DNA of 44,370 bases from a virus (taxonomy: Duplodnaviria > Heunggongvirae > Uroviricota > Caudoviricetes): the IMG/VR virus record IMGVR_UViG_3300045988_005581, one strand, 5' to 3'. Of this stretch, positions 7,481-44,164 are shown one piece after another (position 1 is the stretch's first letter; each line of letters opens with the position of its first letter). The notes beneath the pieces are model-generated. The model did not search any database. It was not told the DNA's origin and saw only the letters and a program-made list of their open reading frames with translations. Position numbers and translations under genes: made by a program.

Positions 7481-7507
7481 TTTTCACCCCCTGCTTAAGT
7501 TAACTGA

Positions 7508-7536
7508 ATAGTACCCTATTATATTGGGGTGTGCAA
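7508..7536 (-). promoter_or_regulatory. sigma70-like promoter TTGCAC-N17-TACTAT (minus strand) with embedded dyad
   Basis: On the minus strand: TTGCAC (7531-7536), 17 bp, TACTAT (7508-7513); dyad AATAG-N4-CTATT at 7507-7520. About 25 bp upstream of the ATG at 7480. Confidence 0.5.
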
Positions 7537-7602: not shown

Positions 7603-7631
7603 TTGACTTTTCACTAAAAATATGATAAGCT
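7603..7631 (+). promoter_or_regulatory. promoter P_A: TTGACT-N17-TGnTAAGCT (extended -10)
   Basis: TTGACT 7603-7608, 17-bp spacer, TG 7623-7624, TAAGCT 7626-7631. Identical core promoter at 39890..39918. Preceded by the perfect palindrome ACTATTCGAATAGT (7590-7603). Confidence 0.6.
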
Positions 7632-7637
7632 CCACCT

Positions 7638-7838
7638 GAGCTTGTGAAGTATGAACAAGCGACCGCGGCGCGGGCAGGTAACGGAGCGGGACGTAAGTCC
7701 TGAGTGTAGTTACGCTGACGCGTTCGGAAGGGCCATACTCTATTGCTTGTGTAAAAAGTAACAGGTTTACTTAGATTACGCCGTTTCTATGTTTAAATGA
7801 TAAGGACTAGCGCCCTGCTTTAAGGCAGGGCTTTACTT
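7638..7838 (+). ncRNA. candidate short terminated transcript / structured leader (element A)
   Basis: Region between P_A and the terminator at 7812..7838; shares a 43-nt identical 5' arm (7626-7668) and a 23-nt identical 3' arm (7723-7745) with element B at 39913-40032. Not shown to be transcribed. Confidence 0.35.
7812..7838 (+). terminator. intrinsic terminator 18 nt upstream of the spanin start
   Basis: GCCCTGC (7812-7818) / GCAGGGC (7825-7831), loop TTTAAG, then TTTACTT. Confidence 0.6.
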
Positions 7839-17019: not shown

Positions 17020-17061
17020 AACATAACTCCTGATTTGAGATAACATCGTTGGTGTAAGTGA

Positions 17062-17090
17062 ATAGTACGCTATTATATCAGGGTGTGCAA
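17062..17090 (-). promoter_or_regulatory. sigma70-like promoter TTGCAC-N17-TACTAT (minus strand) with embedded dyad
   Basis: TTGCAC = 17085-17090, TACTAT = 17062-17067 on the minus strand; dyad AATAG-N4-CTATT 17061-17074; near-identical to the element at 7505-7540. Confidence 0.5.
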
Positions 17091-17197
17091 GTAGTATGTT
17101 AGAATAATTTTGCGCCTAGTGTCGCACACGAAAAGCGGGTGGTTCCCGTCTGGCGCATTTCCTTTAACCAGTAACCTCTTAACCAAAGGATTAAAGA

Positions 17198-36311: not shown

Positions 36312-36340
36312 ACTATAATAGCGAACTATTCACATGTCAA
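36312..36340 (-). promoter_or_regulatory. sigma70-like promoter TTGACA-N17-TATAGT (minus strand) with embedded dyad
   Basis: On the minus strand: TTGACA = 36335-36340, TATAGT = 36312-36317; dyad AATAG-N4-CTATT 36317-36330. A second imperfect dyad AATAT-N4-CTATT lies at 36361-36374. Confidence 0.55.
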
Positions 36341-36404
36341 TGGGCTTTTCTAAAATAATTAATATGGTACTATTCACATATCAACTGACTAAGGAGTAAT
36401 TGAC

Positions 36405-36620
36405 ATGCAACCATCTGAACTAGGTATCCGTGTAGAACAACGCCGTAAAGAACTCGGCATCTCCCAGCGCAGTTTGGCGGCCCTGACCGGCGTTTCCCAG
36501 GGCGTGATTAACCAACTGGCACTTGGAGTAACTCAGGACGTCCGCTCGGCAACGCTGTTCAAACTGGCGGAAGTTCTGGAAGTAGACGCCAAGTGGCTGG
36601 CGTTAGGTGAAGGGGCTTAA
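36405..36620 (+). CDS. Cro/CI-type HTH transcriptional regulator (XRE family)
   Basis: 71 aa with LGISQRSLAALTGVSQGVINQL helix-turn-helix; RBS AAGGAG; the only rightward gene inside the leftward replication module, divergent from it. Confidence 0.75.
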   Translation: MQPSELGIRVEQRRKELGISQRSLAALTGVSQGVINQLALGVTQDVRSATLFKLAEVLEVDAKWLALGEGA

Positions 36621-39390: not shown

Positions 39391-39603
39391 TTACTTAACG
39401 CCCGCAATCCACGCACGCTCCGAAGCGTAGAAACGACACTTACTTAAAGCCTCGATTGGCATCTTAATAATGCGTGTCGGTTCCAACAAATGATTAGGCT
39501 TACATATTTCCGCATAGAATCCGCTGTCAGTAATTTCCGGCGCAAACTTAAACCGGTATTTAACTTTACAGTTTTCAAAGTAACAACCCATACGCCCAAT
39601 CAT
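39391..39603 (-). CDS. hypothetical protein (70 aa)
   Basis: ORF-track ORF, ATGA-coupled to the upstream HTH gene. Confidence 0.5.
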   Translation of the reverse strand: MIGRMGCYFENCKVKYRFKFAPEITDSGFYAEICKPNHLLEPTRIIKMPIEALSKCRFYASERAWIAGVK

Positions 39604-39782
39604 TTCACGTTCTCCTTAATCCATGCTTCAACTTTATTACGGTCAAATGTTCCTGGTAAACGGCGACCCATAACCTTAATACAGCAATCAGGGAATTTAC
39701 CGCTGCGCAACCAGTTATTAATTGTTTGACGTGTCACCCCGATACGTTCAGCCACTTCATTCTGTGTCATGTAATGCTGCAT
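39600..39782 (-). CDS. AlpA-like HTH DNA-binding protein
   Basis: MTQNEVAERIGVTRQTINNWLRSGKFP resembles AlpA/excisionase-type HTH proteins; ATG 39782 with AGGAG RBS (tool start 39854 upstream). First gene of the leftward module. Confidence 0.6.
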   Translation of the reverse strand: MQHYMTQNEVAERIGVTRQTINNWLRSGKFPDCCIKVMGRRLPGTFDRNKVEAWIKENVK

Positions 39783-39813: not shown

Positions 39814-39842
39814 AGTATAGGATAGCGTGAATGTAAAAGCAA
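39814..39842 (-). promoter_or_regulatory. candidate promoter TTGCTT-N17-TATACT (minus strand) for the leftward module
   Basis: On the minus strand: TTGCTT = 39837-39842, TATACT = 39814-39819; about 30 nt upstream of ATG 39782. Confidence 0.4.
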
Positions 39843-39889
39843 CCAAAACACCACACAAAGTTACTGATATACAAAAGATGCTAATGGTA

Positions 39890-39918
39890 TTGACTTTTAC
39901 TAAGAAATGTGCTAAGCT
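39890..39918 (+). promoter_or_regulatory. promoter P_B: TTGACT-N17-TGnTAAGCT (extended -10)
   Basis: TTGACT 39890-39895, 17-bp spacer, TG 39910-39911, TAAGCT 39913-39918; same hexamers and spacing as P_A at 7603..7631. Confidence 0.6.
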
Positions 39919-39924
39919 CCACCT

Positions 39925-40160
39925 GAGCTTGTGAAGTATGAACAAGCGACCGCGGTGCGGCAGGAAACGGAGCGGTGCGTCAGCACTGAGTGTAGTGTCG
40001 CTGCCTGCATTCGGAAGGGCCATACTCTATTGTAAATCCCGTCTAAATAACCCAAGTCACTAATAATTAAAAGTTTCTATAGTTGCCGTAAGCAAGGTAG
40101 AGAGTACTTCACTCCGCTGGGGTGGGCTAAAGCCCACCCGCTGCGTTGCGTACTCTTTAA
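39925..40160 (+). ncRNA. candidate short terminated transcript / structured leader (element B)
   Basis: Paralogue of element A: identical 43-nt and 23-nt arms flanking a 54-nt core with about 12 substitutions and one indel; followed by GC hairpin GGTGGGC-TAAA-GCCCACC (40121-40138) and a U-rich stretch. Not shown to be transcribed. Confidence 0.35.
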
Positions 40161-40198: not shown

Positions 40199-40227
40199 TC
40201 GCACACCCCAACATAATAGGATACTAT
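40199..40227 (+). promoter_or_regulatory. sigma70-like promoter TCGCAC-N17-TACTAT with embedded dyad
   Basis: TCGCAC 40199-40204, TACTAT 40222-40227; dyad AATAG-N4-CTATT 40215-40228; same element as 7505-7540 in reverse orientation. Confidence 0.5.
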
Positions 40228-40261
40228 TCACTTATCGGAACGAGACAGAGGAGTGATGGTT

Positions 40262-40447
40262 ATGTTTAAGAAGGGTCAGTTGGTTAAAACAAAACGCGGC
40301 GGACAGTACGTAATAGTTACCCAGAATGAGGATGAATATAGTACCGCTGTAGACGTATGGGGTCTTGTACGAAAGAAACATGGTTACGCTTTCAGAGATA
40401 ATTTAACACTCATCGGCAACAATTTTAAATTCAAAGGGGTGAAGTGA
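40262..40447 (+). CDS. hypothetical small protein (61 aa)
   Basis: ATG 40262 with GAGGAG RBS at correct spacing (tool start 40253 is GTG); first ORF of a translationally coupled chain. Confidence 0.55.
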   Translation: MFKKGQLVKTKRGGQYVIVTQNEDEYSTAVDVWGLVRKKHGYAFRDNLTLIGNNFKFKGVK

Positions 40448-40680
40448 TGCAAATCATAATTACAGATAACACCGTTATCTACGAAGAAGATGGTGATACT
40501 CTCGAGAAAATAGGCGTAAATGTGGGTGATGTTTTCAATGTACTGGATTCCTGTGAGGATGGCTGGTGGATTAAGACAGGAAGATACACAATCCCGGTAA
40601 CTAAGGCAGAAGCGAAGGTATACACAACGGCATCTAATCATGATGCTCGTGCCGACGACTCTGAGGGAGGTTGCCGTTAA
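40447..40680 (+). CDS. hypothetical acidic protein (77 aa)
   Basis: ATG 40447 overlapping upstream stop (TGATG), RBS AGGGGTG. Confidence 0.55.
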   Translation: MQIIITDNTVIYEEDGDTLEKIGVNVGDVFNVLDSCEDGWWIKTGRYTIPVTKAEAKVYTTASNHDARADDSEGGCR

Positions 40681-40835
40681 TGAAAATTCGAATAACTGAC
40701 CGCAGGCTTATAGATTTCGGTATCTCGGTAGGTGATGTTTTTCTGGCGTTCAGCAGCAACCATTATGGTTTTATGATTGAGTACAAAGGGTCATTATTGT
40801 TCGTGTATCGGGATGAATGCGAGGTTCTGGTATGA
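40680..40835 (+). CDS. hypothetical small protein (51 aa)
   Basis: TAATG coupling upstream and ATGA coupling downstream; not in ORF track. Confidence 0.4.
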   Translation: MKIRITDRRLIDFGISVGDVFLAFSSNHYGFMIEYKGSLLFVYRDECEVLV

Positions 40836-40993
40836 GAGAAGCATTCGAACGGTGGGCCATCGTCGAGGGTCTGCCGGTTAATAAGGGTTCGAAGAAAGAG
40901 TACCTGAACGTTAAGACGCGTCTCGCGTGGCGGGCGTGGAAAGCTGGTGCGAATGTAATGGCTGGCGCATTTGAGAAGAGAGGCGATTTATGA
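40832..40993 (+). CDS. hypothetical small protein (53 aa)
   Basis: ATGA coupling at both ends; not in ORF track. Confidence 0.4.
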   Translation: MREAFERWAIVEGLPVNKGSKKEYLNVKTRLAWRAWKAGANVMAGAFEKRGDL

Positions 40994-41175
40994 GCAAGTG
41001 GATTAAGTGTAGTGAGCGGATGCCGGAGCCTTATGAATACGTTCTTGTAACTGATTGTTTTGTTGGCTGTGAGGTTATGCGTGTTAATTCAGATGGCTAC
41101 TGGGGGCCTGCAAAGAGTTTATATCACGGTGATATAACGCACTGGATGCCGTTACCTGAGCCGCCGGAGGTGTGA
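40990..41175 (+). CDS. DUF551-like protein
   Basis: C-terminal ITHWMPLPEPPE matches the DUF551 signature; paralogue of 34961..35218. Confidence 0.6.
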   Translation: MSKWIKCSERMPEPYEYVLVTDCFVGCEVMRVNSDGYWGPAKSLYHGDITHWMPLPEPPEV

Positions 41176-41333
41176 TGTTCAATAGTTTGGGATTTTACTG
41201 AGTGACTTACGCTGCTACACAGCAGCGTACAACTTTAACTTAGTGTCGTCAAAAAGCGACACTTCCCTAAAACACTGTTGGTGCTGGAATAAAGTGTCTC
41301 CGATTAGCGACACTAAGCACCAATAAAATTTAC

Positions 41334-41362
41334 TTGCACACTGGGATAGAATAGACTACTAT
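41334..41362 (+). promoter_or_regulatory. sigma70-like promoter TTGCAC-N17-TACTAT with embedded dyad
   Basis: TTGCAC 41334-41339, TACTAT 41357-41362; perfect dyad GAATAG-N4-CTATTC at 41349-41364. Confidence 0.55.
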
Positions 41363-41392
41363 TCATTTACACAGACGGGAGGAGAGACAGAG

Positions 41393-41542
41393 ATGGTTAC
41401 TTTGATGGTTATGGAATTCGAAAACAGCGCAGCAACTTACCGTGAGATGACTATGGCGCAGGCATATCACCTGGCCTCAAACGGCAACTTCTACAAGGCT
41501 CAAATCATCAATGAGTTCGGGGTAATTGACTATGAATTTTAG
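41393..41542 (+). CDS. hypothetical small protein (49 aa)
   Basis: ATG 41393 with GGGAGGAGAG RBS; not in ORF track. Confidence 0.4.
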   Translation: MVTLMVMEFENSAATYREMTMAQAYHLASNGNFYKAQIINEFGVIDYEF

Positions 41543-41810
41543 CAGCTACACCGTGACTGTTGATTTTGAGGGGCTGGAGTTGCCCCTCCCTAACAACTAC
41601 CGGTACATAACTCGCGATAGTAACGGGTTTATTCAGGGGTGGCGGAACAAACCGACAGACACCGAGTTCGGGATGTCAGGAGGAGGAGAAGAGTTGCCGA
41701 TCACGTTCGGGCACCAAAGTAGTAATGAAGAACTTAAAACTGTGATTCGTAAGTACCGCCGCCGCCGCGGCAACACGGGGCTTATCGCAATAACAGGCGC
41801 TGTTGAATAA
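41532..41810 (+). CDS. hypothetical protein (92 aa)
   Basis: ATG 41532 overlapping the preceding ORF (tool start 41526 is TTG); basic C-terminus RKYRRRRGNTG. Confidence 0.5.
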   Translation: MNFSSYTVTVDFEGLELPLPNNYRYITRDSNGFIQGWRNKPTDTEFGMSGGGEELPITFGHQSSNEELKTVIRKYRRRRGNTGLIAITGAVE

Positions 41811-41828
41811 ACGAGAGGAGAGGCAGAG

Positions 41829-41942
41829 ATGTACAGCGAATTTGATTTGTGGGACGTGGTTCTTATGTGGGCCTCCGGGGAAGATGTTGTTTGCGACTGC
41901 GACACGTTAAGTATCATATGCGAGGAGCCAGAAGATGAGTAA
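41829..41942 (+). CDS. possible 37-aa acidic peptide
   Basis: ATG 41829 with GAGAGGAGAGG RBS; stop overlaps next start. Speculative. Confidence 0.3.
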   Translation: MYSEFDLWDVVLMWASGEDVVCDCDTLSIICEEPEDE

Positions 41943-42372
41943 CAAAAACGAAGTATTCGAGTACCTGATTGACCAACTACGGCAGCAGCTAAATAACAAC
42001 CCATACAAGCAACAGTGCGAAGACCTGGCCCATGAGGTGCCGTCACTCAAGAACCAGTTACGTGATGCGTCGGCGCAGATTAAGGAGTTGCATACGGCTC
42101 TGGTCAAAGCTACGGGTGACGTGGAGGCGTACAAACTTATCCGCAATGGTGAACATGGACCTGAGCAATCTGGCTGCCGTAAAGAAGACGTGCAGGAATG
42201 CAGGCATGATTGGGTTCTGGACGAAAAAGGGGACTACTTCGTTTGCTATAAGCGCGGTAAGCAAGAAGCGGAATTGAGCGATTGCCCACACGCTAATACC
42301 GTCGGTTTGCGCAAAGGCTTTGCGCCGGGTTTTACTAAAAAGTGTCTTGATTGCGGGGCTAAACTGAAATGA
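41935..42372 (+). CDS. hypothetical protein with C-terminal zinc-ribbon-like motif (145 aa)
   Basis: Coiled-coil-like N-terminus; C-terminal CPH...C..CG. Confidence 0.55.
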   Translation: MSNKNEVFEYLIDQLRQQLNNNPYKQQCEDLAHEVPSLKNQLRDASAQIKELHTALVKATGDVEAYKLIRNGEHGPEQSGCRKEDVQECRHDWVLDEKGDYFVCYKRGKQEAELSDCPHANTVGLRKGFAPGFTKKCLDCGAKLK

Positions 42373-42572
42373 CCAGCATCTTATTTATCTGGGTATTGTC
42401 GGCGGGCCAGATGCAACTAGCGGCATCAGAAACGTTTTACTCGATGGAGGCGTGCCCGTCAGCGGCACGCGCCGCAGAGAACGCGCACTTTCTGTTTCAG
42501 GGTGACAAGCCCAACGATTCAGAGGTACGCGCTATCTGCTCACCTAAGCGACTTGGTAAACAGGAGAAATAA
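42369..42572 (+). CDS. small secreted/periplasmic protein (signal-peptide-like N-terminus)
   Basis: N-terminal hydrophobic segment ILFIWVLSAGQMQLAAS resembling a signal peptide; ATGA-coupled. Confidence 0.5.
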   Translation: MTSILFIWVLSAGQMQLAASETFYSMEACPSAARAAENAHFLFQGDKPNDSEVRAICSPKRLGKQEK

Positions 42573-42573
42573 C

Positions 42574-42756
42574 ATGGTACAGAGATATACCTACGACCAG
42601 ATATTCGGGTTTACTCCTGATGTTGAGGGCGTGTTAGTGCTTTACGAAGATTACGCGAAACTCGAAGCCGAGTTACAGAAATACAAGGACCAGTTTCCTG
42701 ATTACGTTGAGTGCGCGAACTGTGGGTCAGTTACACATGTGGAGGGGGTGGAGTGA
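42574..42756 (+). CDS. hypothetical protein (60 aa)
   Basis: ATG 42574 with AGGAG RBS (tool start 42502 upstream); C-terminal C..C pair. Confidence 0.5.
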   Translation: MVQRYTYDQIFGFTPDVEGVLVLYEDYAKLEAELQKYKDQFPDYVECANCGSVTHVEGVE

Positions 42757-43049
42757 TGTCTCTTGCAACTGACATCCTGAAACGAAGCGGCCTTGCGCCG
42801 CTGTCACCGAGAACGAACACCCGAATATACAAGCGCCGCCGTAACGCGCTGTACCCTGAGATTCAAGCCAGACGCAAAGCCATCCGCGCCTGCGGATTCC
42901 AGAGCGGGAAGGCCGTTAATCTAGGCGAGTTTAAGACGAAGGAACGCGCAGCAATCGCTAATCGGTTATTTAATTACTGGAAATCGCTGGGGTATGAGGA
43001 TATTCCGACGAAACCGCAGAGACGACAATACATCTGGCGTCATAAATAA
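42756..43049 (+). CDS. hypothetical basic protein (97 aa)
   Basis: ATG 42756 overlapping upstream stop (TGATG); Arg/Lys-rich; last gene before the lysis cassette. Confidence 0.5.
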   Translation: MSLATDILKRSGLAPLSPRTNTRIYKRRRNALYPEIQARRKAIRACGFQSGKAVNLGEFKTKERAAIANRLFNYWKSLGYEDIPTKPQRRQYIWRHK

Positions 43050-43079
43050 ACCGTTATTAAGATAATTCCTAACCGTGCT

Positions 43080-43119
43080 ATCCTCCAGTTACTGCATACT
43101 TAATACGCACCTGGAGGAT
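43080..43119 (+). promoter_or_regulatory. RNA hairpin sequestering the holin Shine-Dalgarno sequence
   Basis: Perfect 9-bp inverted repeat ATCCTCCAG (43080-43088) / CTGGAGGAT (43111-43119); the 3' arm contains the GGAGGA RBS of the holin gene, which starts with TTG at 43125. Confidence 0.4.
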
Positions 43120-43124
43120 TCATC

Positions 43125-43433
43125 TTGGATAAATTTACTGAAACAGTGACGGGGTGGCTTCTCGCTGCCGCATTAGCTGGTGGGGTAATAGGCTTACGGC
43201 AACACAAAGCCACTATTACCGGCCCTGTCGATGCTCTCTGTTTTCTCGCCACTGGCTTTGCGTGCGCCGTATTCGGTGCGCCTCTCGCCGCTCAATGGTT
43301 CGGTATCGCAGGTGAACGCGAAATAGCGGGCCTTGGATTCATCATTGCTATTCTCTGGATGCCAATTTATTCCCGTCTCTCTGGCATTGTCGCCGGAGAA
43401 TACATCGCACGTCGCGGAGGTGGTAATGAATGA
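43125..43433 (+). CDS. holin (putative)
   Basis: 102 aa with at least two hydrophobic TM-like segments and a charged C-terminus; TTG start 6 nt after GGAGGA; directly upstream of the endolysin gene. Confidence 0.6.
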   Translation: MDKFTETVTGWLLAAALAGGVIGLRQHKATITGPVDALCFLATGFACAVFGAPLAAQWFGIAGEREIAGLGFIIAILWMPIYSRLSGIVAGEYIARRGGGNE

Positions 43434-43698
43434 GTTATTCTGGTTTGGTGGTATGCTCGCAATCGGGAGCACATCGCTGTTTAACGTATACCACCCCAGC
43501 GTAGATGATGGGCTGTTCGGGCGTGTGCTTTATATTCTGACTGCTATTGTCTGCGCCGCCGGTTGTATCCACTTGTTACAGGGCAGCATGTCACCTACGC
43601 TGCCTGAGACATTAATCACATTAGTTGCGCTGCGTCAGATTCGCCAGGCGTGGCTGTCATACGGAGGACATAAGCGTGTCTCGAAACATTTCAGATAA
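43426..43698 (+). CDS. second membrane protein of the lysis cassette (holin/antiholin-like)
   Basis: ATG 43426 overlapping the holin stop; two hydrophobic segments; 3' end overlaps the endolysin start. Confidence 0.5.
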   Translation: MNELFWFGGMLAIGSTSLFNVYHPSVDDGLFGRVLYILTAIVCAAGCIHLLQGSMSPTLPETLITLVALRQIRQAWLSYGGHKRVSKHFR

Positions 43699-44164
43699 TG
43701 GGTTGCATTTCACCGCAGCATTTGAGGGATTCCGCGGAACCGCGTATCGCGCTACGCCAAATGAGAAGTACCTGACTATTGGGTACGGTCATTATGGGCC
43801 AGACGTAACGCCAGGCAAGACCATCACCCCGGGACAAGGCCTCCTGTTACTGAATCGTGATATGGCTAAGGCCGTAGCTGCGGTTGACGCAGCAGCACAC
43901 CATTCATTGACACAGGCACAGTTCGATGCAGTGTGCGACCTGGTATACAACGCAGGTGCTGGTGTGATTGCTGCTACTACCGGCACGGGTAAGGCACTGC
44001 GTTCTGGTGATATTGCAACGCTGCGGGCTAAGCTGGCGCTGTTCATCAACCAGAACGGCAAACCGATACTTGGACTGCGTCGTCGTACCGCCGGTCGTCT
44101 GGCGCTGTTCGACGGTAAACCGTGGCAGGAGGCTGAGGCTATCGGGCGCGCGGTGAAAGGTTGA
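43676..44164 (+). CDS. endolysin, lysozyme-like (GH24-type)
   Basis: GTG start 43676 with GGAGGA RBS; FEGFRGTAY...TIGYGH resembles the catalytic region of T4/lambda-type lysozymes (recalled). Confidence 0.8.
   Translation: MSRNISDNGLHFTAAFEGFRGTAYRATPNEKYLTIGYGHYGPDVTPGKTITPGQGLLLLNRDMAKAVAAVDAAAHHSLTQAQFDAVCDLVYNAGAGVIAATTGTGKALRSGDIATLRAKLALFINQNGKPILGLRRRTAGRLALFDGKPWQEAEAIGRAVKG

Follow-up and report, generated by a model that had tools for sequence, protein, structure and literature searches.

Why does a virulent phage carry strong inverted repeats in the gap between two co-directional gene clusters? The question is raised by positions 41176-41333 of the IMG/VR virus record IMGVR_UViG_3300045988_005581, a stretch of 44,370 nucleotides (the window; 44.4 kb) that is the complete or near-complete genome of a virulent, Kagunavirus-like E. 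coli siphophage (Guernseyvirinae). A sequence-only reading of this DNA had reported three strong inverted repeats in the gap, and all three are present where it had placed them, among them AGTGTCG...CGACACT at 41242-41263. Two of the three, here called palindromes 1 and 2, have the recognition sequence of sites for the host regulator QseF (GlrR) but, as judged by consensus scans, are not enhancers of a sigma54 promoter. QseF is an NtrC-family, sigma54-dependent response regulator of the host QseE/QseG/QseF envelope-signalling system. The terminator hairpin and the promoter at this junction are themselves ordinary; the close resemblance of the neighbouring palindromes to host sites suggests that a host regulator is either put to use or sequestered by the phage. 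The two candidate sites are:

41242-41263, no strand assigned: palindrome 1, AGTGTCGTCAAAAAGCGACACT, a QseF/GlrR-type site by sequence match to ABS2, an activator-binding site (ABS) of host glmY
41293-41314, no strand assigned: palindrome 2, AGTGTCTCCGATTAGCGACACT, a second QseF/GlrR-type site by sequence match to Salmonella glmY ABS2

When palindrome 1 was compared with E. coli genomes by short BLAST, a match appeared at an unannotated spot between purL and qseE (glrK), where Rfam places the glmY small RNA (2176-2323 of locus L231, 144.7 bits). Upstream of host glmY lie three TGTC-N10-GACA palindromes followed by a sigma54 promoter, TTGGCACAGTTACTGCAT. These palindromes are the activator-binding sites ABS1-3 of the response regulator GlrR (QseF), with the consensus TGTCN10GACA, and sigma54-dependent glmY transcription needs them together with IHF, ABS2 and ABS3 being essential in E. 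coli (PMC3045617). The QseF consensus is also written TGTN12ACA, QseF sites serve rpoE P2 as well, and QseF is partly phosphorylated in normal growth (PMC6075780). In the window, TGTCN10GACA is matched without mismatch at 41244-41261 and 41295-41312. Read on the other strand (AGTGTCGCTTTTTGACGACACT), palindrome 1 is identical to ABS2 of E. coli (ST2747; CGTGTCGCTTTTTGGCGACACT) at 20/22 positions, including 12 of the 14 positions that the consensus leaves free (binomial p = 3e-6). Palindrome 2 agrees at 19/22 positions with the reverse complement of Salmonella ABS2 (AGTGTCGCTAAAAGGTGACACT, from OR851500, L238), and the BCH953P1 variant of palindrome 1 agrees with Salmonella ABS2 at 20/22. The positions that are polymorphic in the phage site are those that differ among host ABS2 sites.

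The significance of these matches was assessed by simulation, in which random perfect palindromes, with the palindromic structure kept, were compared with all nine host sites in both orientations. Identities of at least 20/22 with 7-bp arms were obtained with P < 5e-7, and of at least 19/22 with 6-bp arms with P = 4e-6; conditioned on the core consensus and on palindromic arms, the probability of at least 20/22 was 1.1e-4. The record that supplied the Salmonella site, OR851500.1 (‘Salmonella phage S.Kent 1-2-1’, 1,780 bp), contains an Rfam GlmY match at 532-679 (148.6 bits) with a sigma54 promoter and three QseF sites, and is probably Salmonella chromosomal DNA, a host contamination of the phage assembly.

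A third TGTC-N10-GACA (GATGTC-N10-GACATC) is found in the window at 42757-42774 on the plus strand, across the first seven codons (MSLATDI) of the open reading frame (ORF) starting at 42756. Its best match to a host ABS is 14/22, resembling none of them, and in phages K1G and XY2 its synonymous positions are changed while the protein is kept. This site is probably a coincidence of coding sequence.

The octamer GCGACACT picked out by the sequence-only reading does lie at 41256-41263 and 41307-41314; what had been overlooked is that both GACACT repeats belong to one shared geometry, AGTGTC-N10-GACACT, with centres 51 bp apart. Arms and spacing are identical in palindromes 1 and 2, and the spacers differ. 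Palindrome 1, loop included, is nearly invariant in approximately 20 distinct sequence contexts with varying flanks, the only variants seen being AAAAAG to AAAAGG and one C to T. Between the window and the metagenomic phage contig L186 (the same contig as L221) the palindromes are identical at 43/44 positions, versus 41/50 for the surrounding spacers (Fisher p = 0.018). None of the three substitutions seen in the palindromes touches the TGTC/GACA core, and two recreate natural ABS2 variants. Judged from these alignments, the palindrome 22-mers are under purifying selection. The pattern is, on this comparative evidence, the signature of sequence-specific recognition of a symmetric site and not of a purely structural RNA hairpin, because the 22-mers and their loops are conserved amid varying flanks and the two palindromes share arms and spacing with different spacers.

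Palindrome 2 is far rarer than palindrome 1. It lies within a 55-bp segment that replaces the leader/ORF slot of the relatives and is enclosed there by an 8-10-bp clamp stem. Neither 50,697 phage records nor 5,426 E. coli genomes contained a match to this segment. Its only homolog is on contig L186, where palindrome 2 is 21/22 identical with the core intact. The clamp arms in L186 have diverged (TTGGGTCA and AACACTAA), and the nested outer stem is therefore not a conserved feature. The window and L186 thus have two sites 51 bp apart, and the other phages that carry palindrome 1 have one site each.

The 158-bp gap is intergenic as the sequence-only reading had it, but the true non-coding gap is 41176-41392 (217 bp), of which the final 59 bp are promoter and 5' leader. 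Apart from the two palindromes, the junction contains the following features:

40990-41175, plus strand: gene for a DUF551 protein of 61 aa (ORF list; Pfam DUF551, E = 1.3e-15)
41181-41207, plus strand: conserved block AATAGTTTGGGATTTTACTGAGTGACT before hairpin 1 (alignments)
41208-41229, plus strand: hairpin 1, stem TACGCTGCT/AGCAGCGTA, loop ACAC
41278-41285, plus strand: left arm of the clamp stem, TTGGTGCT (inverted-repeat search, folding)
41316-41323, plus strand: right arm of the clamp stem, AGCACCAA (inverted-repeat search, comparison with L186)
41334-41369, plus strand: sigma70-type phage promoter motif TTGCAC-N17-TACTATTCATTTA (motif count, PHIRE annotation in fBC-Eco01)
41370-41392, plus strand: 5' leader with the ribosome-binding site GGGAGGAGAG of the gene at 41393 (sequence, ORF list)

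The nearest database relatives share 87-94% identity across 40.0-44.4 kb of the window. The comparison drew on relatives in GenBank, on 47 loci from IMG/VR with hairpin 1 as anchor, and on 10 loci from metagenomes. In the subfamily the DUF551 gene is followed by a conserved block, with hairpin 1 at its end, and then by one or the other of two alleles. Next come a conserved leader, whose ribosome-binding site TTTCACCAAACGCAACAATCGAAGCGACTATTGCAGGAGATGCAACAATG serves a variable and often deleted small ORF, then ACACCAATAAAATTTAC, and finally the promoter TTGCAC-N17-TACTATTCAYTTA. In the majority of phages hairpin 1 is followed by a T-rich tract, TCATTTTTCTCATTTTTG (full form TCATTTTTCTCATTTTTGTTCTA; CCATTTTTGTTAATATTTTTCTA in Salmonella phages), and together with this T allele hairpin 1 forms a textbook intrinsic terminator (tail score -3.37). 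The second, P allele (CAACTTTAACTT-AGTGTCGTCAAAAAGCGACAC) has a 33-35-bp segment with palindrome 1 in place of the T-rich tract. It was found in 78 phage records, which include Escherichia as well as Salmonella phages, with one copy in each genome, and the window carries it.

Hairpin 1 begins 33 nt past the DUF551 stop codon and is stable (dG -13.9 kcal/mol, z -4.8). The sequence-only reading had described it as ACGCTGCT-ACAC-AGCAGCGT at 41209-41228; that repeat is present, but the stem is really 9 bp long and spans 41208-41229. Among relatives that were retrieved by similarity to the hairpin 1 block itself, the stem is invariant in all those examined and shows no co-variation, and the loop varies (ACAC, GAGT, ACTC, GTGC, GTGT). 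The idea of a terminator, put forward in the sequence-only reading, holds in part: hairpin 1 does supply the stem of a terminator-type hairpin found across the subfamily, but in the window another segment has taken the place of its U-tract. None of the three window hairpins has a U-rich tract directly after its stem, and a terminator consensus scan calls none of them (tail scores: hairpin 1, -1.79; palindrome 1, -2.40; palindrome 2 with clamp, -2.01). Intrinsic termination at hairpin 1 is thus probably weak in the window, because the P-allele segment took the place of the T-rich tract. The junction resembles the intrinsic (Rho-independent) terminators, tandem ones included, at the ends of phage operons in having a stable 9-bp stem after a stop codon and, in most relatives, a T-rich tail. 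It differs from them in that the tail is replaced in the window, leaving three hairpins without a U-tract, and in that the hairpin 1 stem is invariant and not co-varying.

As a separate observation, the hairpin 1 stem and the approximately 27 nt before it (41181-41229) are conserved more than the adjacent coding sequence in Escherichia and Salmonella phages, the stem being without compensatory changes, a degree of conservation unusual for a plain terminator. The block AATAGTTTGGGATTTTACTGAGTGACT is nearly invariant among many Escherichia and Salmonella relatives, and a second allele of it is also present. Possibly the hairpin 1 region is a conserved small RNA derived from a 3' untranslated region, or a protein-recognised element.

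Could the repeats act at the RNA level only, as plus-strand stem-loops serving as tandem weak terminators, exonuclease 3' barriers or RNase III-type processing sites, with the likeness to QseF sites a coincidence? The 158 nt do fold strongly, at -50.2 kcal/mol versus -31.5 ± 3.8 for dinucleotide shuffles (z -4.9; 0/200 shuffles equal), and the other strand behaves similarly; each individual hairpin is also significant against shuffles. The nested hairpin of the sequence-only reading (41280-41321) is present but extends over 41278-41323 (TTGGTGCT...AGTGTC...GACACT...AGCACCAA). Further in keeping with an RNA role, the repeats begin approximately 30-65 nt past the stop codon in the slot of the relatives' terminator tail, the stem substitutions and the loop A to G all keep or extend plus-strand RNA pairing, and in relatives palindrome 1 is followed by TTTCAC, which gives a borderline tail score of -2.9 to -3.1. 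Several results are difficult to reconcile with it. The window hairpins have no U-tract and are not called by the consensus scan, the loops of palindromes 1 and 2 are conserved whereas that of hairpin 1 is free, and the outer clamp stem is broken in the sole other carrier. Two palindromes would also each have to match sites of the same regulator at 19-20/22 positions by chance (P approximately 1e-6 or less each). We regard an exclusively RNA-level role as quite unlikely.

The third component of the junction is the promoter at 41334-41369, approximately 20 bp beyond the palindromes. The motif TTGCAC-N17-TACTATTCAYTTA has four copies in the window versus 0.02 expected. Within it a palindrome, (G)AATAG-N4-CTATT(C), covers the -10 region (GAATAG-N4-CTATTC at 41334-41369) and looks like an operator for a phage repressor. 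Its transcription start would lie at approximately 41365-41369, placing the palindromes with their centres approximately 65 and 116 bp upstream. The promoter appears, from gene order, to head the operon ending in the holin and endolysin genes. At the equivalent position in fBC-Eco01 a ‘phage promoter’ has been annotated by PHIRE. The PHIRE promoters of Kagunaviruses (fBC-Eco01, Golestan) are the same element, as the core, read in reverse complement, gives their published consensus tgAATAGTa-ccTATTat-T; this element is a neighbour of the palindromes and distinct from them. The papers attribute it to a phage RNA polymerase, whereas the window motif looks sigma70-type with an operator-like palindrome. 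No RNA polymerase gene was noticed among the ORFs listed for the window or the genes annotated in four complete relatives, in which no search was aimed at one.

The reading we favour, with somewhat better than even confidence, is a junction of three layers in which QseF-bound sites act locally. Hairpin 1 would be the subfamily-wide terminator stem whose U-tract has been swapped for the palindrome 1 segment; palindromes 1 and 2 would be binding sites for host QseF (GlrR), bound by phosphorylated QseF dimers; and the sigma70-type promoter approximately 20 bp further on would drive the operon with the lysis genes. Bound QseF might, as a substitute for the lost U-tract, keep transcription of the upstream operon from reading through, and/or it might impede RNA polymerase at the promoter next to it, so that expression across the junction would depend on the envelope-stress state of the host. 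QseF binding and all effects downstream of it are inferred from sequence, and the local effect itself, whether on read-through or on the promoter, we consider a possible but rather doubtful outcome. The closest analogue for such a local effect is NtrC, whose sites at glnAp1 and glnL act as repressor sites at sigma70 promoters: there an enhancer-binding protein of the same family, bound near a sigma70 promoter, can have an effect without sigma54. The NtrC sites overlap the core promoter, whereas the phage sites are centred at approximately -65 and -116.

A number of results weigh against this three-layer reading. Scans for a sigma54 promoter (TGGCAC-N5-TTGCW, with GG and GC fixed) and for the IHF consensus WATCARNNNNTTR within ±450 bp of the site found neither in the window nor in 22 other P-allele loci, and sigma54-like matches in the whole genome are at chance level (31 versus 37 in shuffles). 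NtrC-family enhancer-binding proteins are not known to activate sigma70 promoters. Palindrome 1 lies 100-330 bp from the promoter in relatives, and a fixed promoter-proximal role would for that reason be specific to the window and L186. Occupancy may be weak, because most P-allele phages have one site where the host has three plus IHF. The two stem substitutions seen (C to T) keep G.U pairs in the plus-strand RNA hairpin. Palindrome 1 is also dispensable, being carried by 78 of approximately 440 related records (approximately 18%), and in the literature searched there was no transcriptome or promoter mapping for Guernseyvirinae.

Since neither a sigma54 promoter nor an IHF site accompanies them, the palindromes would be orphan QseF-type sites. 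Compared with the host QseF/GlrR sites (glmY; glmZ in many Enterobacteriaceae; rpoE P2), they have the same half-sites and spacing, TGTC-N10-GACA; they are near-copies of glmY ABS2, with phage variants lying within natural ABS2 variation; and the two sites of the window are clustered on roughly the same helix face. Host glmY, however, has three sites with IHF and a sigma54 promoter, and the phage has one or two with neither. The phage sites also differ from the host ones in their setting, a virulent phage genome, between a degenerate terminator and a sigma70-type promoter. We found no report of QseF/GlrR sites in lytic phage genomes in the literature searched.

A canonical enhancer would imply that the palindromes activate a non-canonical or more distant sigma54 promoter that a consensus scan overlooks. 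At glmY, sigma54 activation depends on sites of this type, a pair of dimer sites with a spacing of 51 bp (approximately five helical turns) resembles a minimal enhancer, and palindrome 1 is always upstream of the same conserved promoter, at 100-330 bp. That promoter, however, has TTGCAC where the -24 box of a sigma54 promoter needs GG, and no -12 GC at the right spacing; no conserved GG-N10-GC element with TTGC is shared by the 23 loci, and the IHF consensus is missing. An enhancer of this kind is very unlikely in our estimate. One sigma54-like match, TGGTGTTTTGGTTGCT at 39838-39853 on the minus strand, is situated between genes, in a promoter region immediately preceding the HTH_17/excisionase-like gene and 1.4 kb away from the QseF-type sites; it is one of the 31 chance-level matches, and the true start of that gene is the ATG at 39782, not the GTG at 39854.

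The orphan state of the sites also speaks for a decoy. Under this explanation they have no local role, and replicating phage DNA at high copy would titrate QseF off the chromosomal glmY and rpoE P2 enhancers, dampening the GlmY/GlmZ/GlmS cell-envelope-precursor circuit and the sigmaE response in infection. The decoy rests on the same sequence evidence for QseF recognition as a local effect does. In addition, the element is accessory: it occupies a hypervariable slot, otherwise filled by small accessory ORFs, and assorts independently of neighbouring genes, and the second site of the window doubles the dose. Perturbation of the RapZ/GlcN6P pathway is reported to affect infection by an unrelated lytic coliphage (PMC8546717). 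One or two sites per genome would be a modest sink, though, we found no precedent for such a decoy in the literature searched, and it leaves unexplained why the site sits exactly in the U-tract slot. We judge the decoy unlikely, with QseF titration almost as likely as a local effect of bound QseF.

Other origins of the site, and other proteins that might bind it, were considered and rejected. A mobile palindromic element does not fit a 14-base pattern scan of IMG/VR, which gave only single scattered matches outside the subfamily; the ABS2-type pattern likewise had only apparent chance matches, in coding sequence, outside Guernseyvirinae in IMG/VR. Capture of a larger host fragment was dismissed because no phage record contains a longer homolog of the region upstream of glmY. 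The 20-bp core of palindrome 1 (seventh base free) was not found in enterobacteria among species-representative bacterial genomes. As for a phage-encoded binder, the P/T allele does not track with sequence variants of either the HTH_17 protein (39603-39782, minus strand) or an XRE-like protein (36405-36620, plus strand), and no P-allele-associated gene was detected within ±3 kb in 30 loci and 95 clusters (best p = 0.024).

The sequence-only reading had further suggested possible binding sites for a late-gene regulator, pointing to the two copies of GCGACACT and to the related TAGTGTCGC at 17116-17124 upstream of the tail operon. A binding-site type of element is indeed what the comparisons point to, but its consensus is that of host QseF/GlrR and not of a phage late-gene regulator. 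When the enrichment check was run, GCGACACT had 4 copies in the window versus 1.67 expected, a number reached in 6/100 shuffles, and the hexamer AGTGTC/GACACT had 20 occurrences versus 21.7 expected. Self-BLAST recovered the 17118 and 39994 copies of GCGACACT as 9-10-mer matches (E = 8-32), the only significant paralog being that of the downstream promoter. The 39994 copy is inside a separate two-copy element, other versions of which read AGTTACGC, AGTTCCGC or AGCCTCGC there, and the 17118 copy is kept in Bas72, a phage without the palindrome. The TAGTGTCGC sequence is at the position reported, but its relation to the palindromes is at chance level and was not borne out. A phage late-gene motif was consequently rejected: GCGACACT/AGTGTC shows no enrichment and does not recur at other phage promoters, to which the unrelated copy at 17116 adds nothing. 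At the 17-kb tail operon, said to lack a sigma70-like promoter, the scan does find none with both -35 and -10 boxes, although an extended -10-like TGtTAGAAT is present at 17097-17105. A transcript from approximately 17112 would open with a GCGCC...GGCGC stem containing TAGTGTCGC (region 17097-17156, plus strand), and the fold at 17097-17156 is no better than shuffles (z -1.2).

An origin-like element had also been suggested. Two repeated 22-bp palindromes adjoining an AT-rich stretch, AATAAAATTTAC, could be taken for iteron-like or hairpin replication signals, or for some other essential cis site. Palindrome 1 is missing from most relatives, however, and palindrome 2 from all but one other known genome; the region lies away from the replication genes (27.3-39.2 kb, minus strand), and there are no direct iterons. 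As the palindromes are dispensable, unlike an essential origin, this function is effectively excluded.

QseF/GlrR sites in enterobacterial chromosomes and the annotated promoter in relatives were known; what appears to be new is the presence of orphan sites as an optional allele in virulent phages. We put at slightly less than even the chance that a subset of virulent Guernseyvirinae carries orphan high-quality copies of QseF/GlrR sites to read or sabotage host envelope signalling. If they read it, transcription into the lysis-gene operon would be coupled to QseE/QseF signalling; if they sabotage it, glmY and rpoE would lose QseF to the phage DNA by titration. In both cases the phage DNA would mimic a host enhancer in cis without the sigma54 promoter. 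If QseF truly binds, a strictly lytic phage would have cis-acting copies of the enhancer sites of a host two-component regulator, and phage expression or host manipulation would be tied to the QseE/QseG/QseF - GlmY/GlmZ - GlmS and sigmaE envelope circuits, which control peptidoglycan and LPS precursor synthesis. The natural allele pair at one locus, U-tract terminator versus QseF-type site, occurs in many otherwise similar phages, members of the BASEL collection included, and so makes the hypothesis directly testable with existing phages and host knockouts. K1G, Bas70, Bas75 and Bas76 are examples with the P allele, and Bas72 is one with the T allele.

The junction under study separates two rightward clusters. 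The upstream one consists of five small genes at 40253-41175, the last being the DUF551 gene; the downstream one starts with the gene at 41393 (DUF7170) and continues on the same strand through to the holins and endolysin (43125-44164), lysis genes that were identified from the annotation of relatives. A consensus scan of the plus strand at 41400-44160 found no promoter-like or terminator-like site. An Rfam search of the gap region matched no family. A small ORF annotated across the gap in some relatives (e.g., Bas72_0062) is no gene in the window, because its frame stops there after 8 codons. Locus context was also sought through the DUF551 neighbour and abandoned, as this family is too widespread and the viral loci retrieved were therefore mostly unrelated.

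In relatives, the stretch from hairpin 1 to the promoter (e.g., L001 1600-1835) forms a hypervariable slot for accessory genes; its counterpart in the window is the replaced segment 41264-41320. The leader TTTCACCAAACGCAACAATCGAAGCGACTATTGCAGGAGATGCAACAATG precedes at least three unrelated small ORFs there, or is fused directly to the promoter by deletion. Inspection of this leader showed no evident promoter, and the accessory ORFs would for that reason need read-through of hairpin 1.

The four copies of the promoter motif in the window are at 7501-7536 (minus), 17055-17090 (minus), 40199-40234 (plus) and 41334-41369 (plus). Further copies of the promoter core, AACTATTCACAT and TACTATTCACAT, are found at 36323-36333 and 36368-36376 on the plus strand, upstream of the XRE/DicA-like gene (36405-36620).

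The separate two-copy element lies at 7603-7745 and 39891-40034, both on the plus strand. It is approximately 115-130 nt long, its copies are 88% identical, and it possibly reaches the hairpins at approximately 7812-7832 and 40119-40140. It has its own sigma70-like promoter, TTGACT-17-TAAGCT, and divergent versions in relatives, and no match in Rfam at E < 10. One of its hairpins reads GGACGTAAGTCC, GTGCGTCAGCAC, GTGCCATTAGGCAC or CACGTCTCGACGTG, so that across four versions of varying sequence the pairing is maintained despite the change. A long-range pair in the element occurs as three Watson-Crick types with no mismatch in 16 sequences. The element is likely, on this pairing evidence, to be a structured non-coding RNA. 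Both copies are located in divergent regulatory regions adjoining copies of the phage promoter motif.

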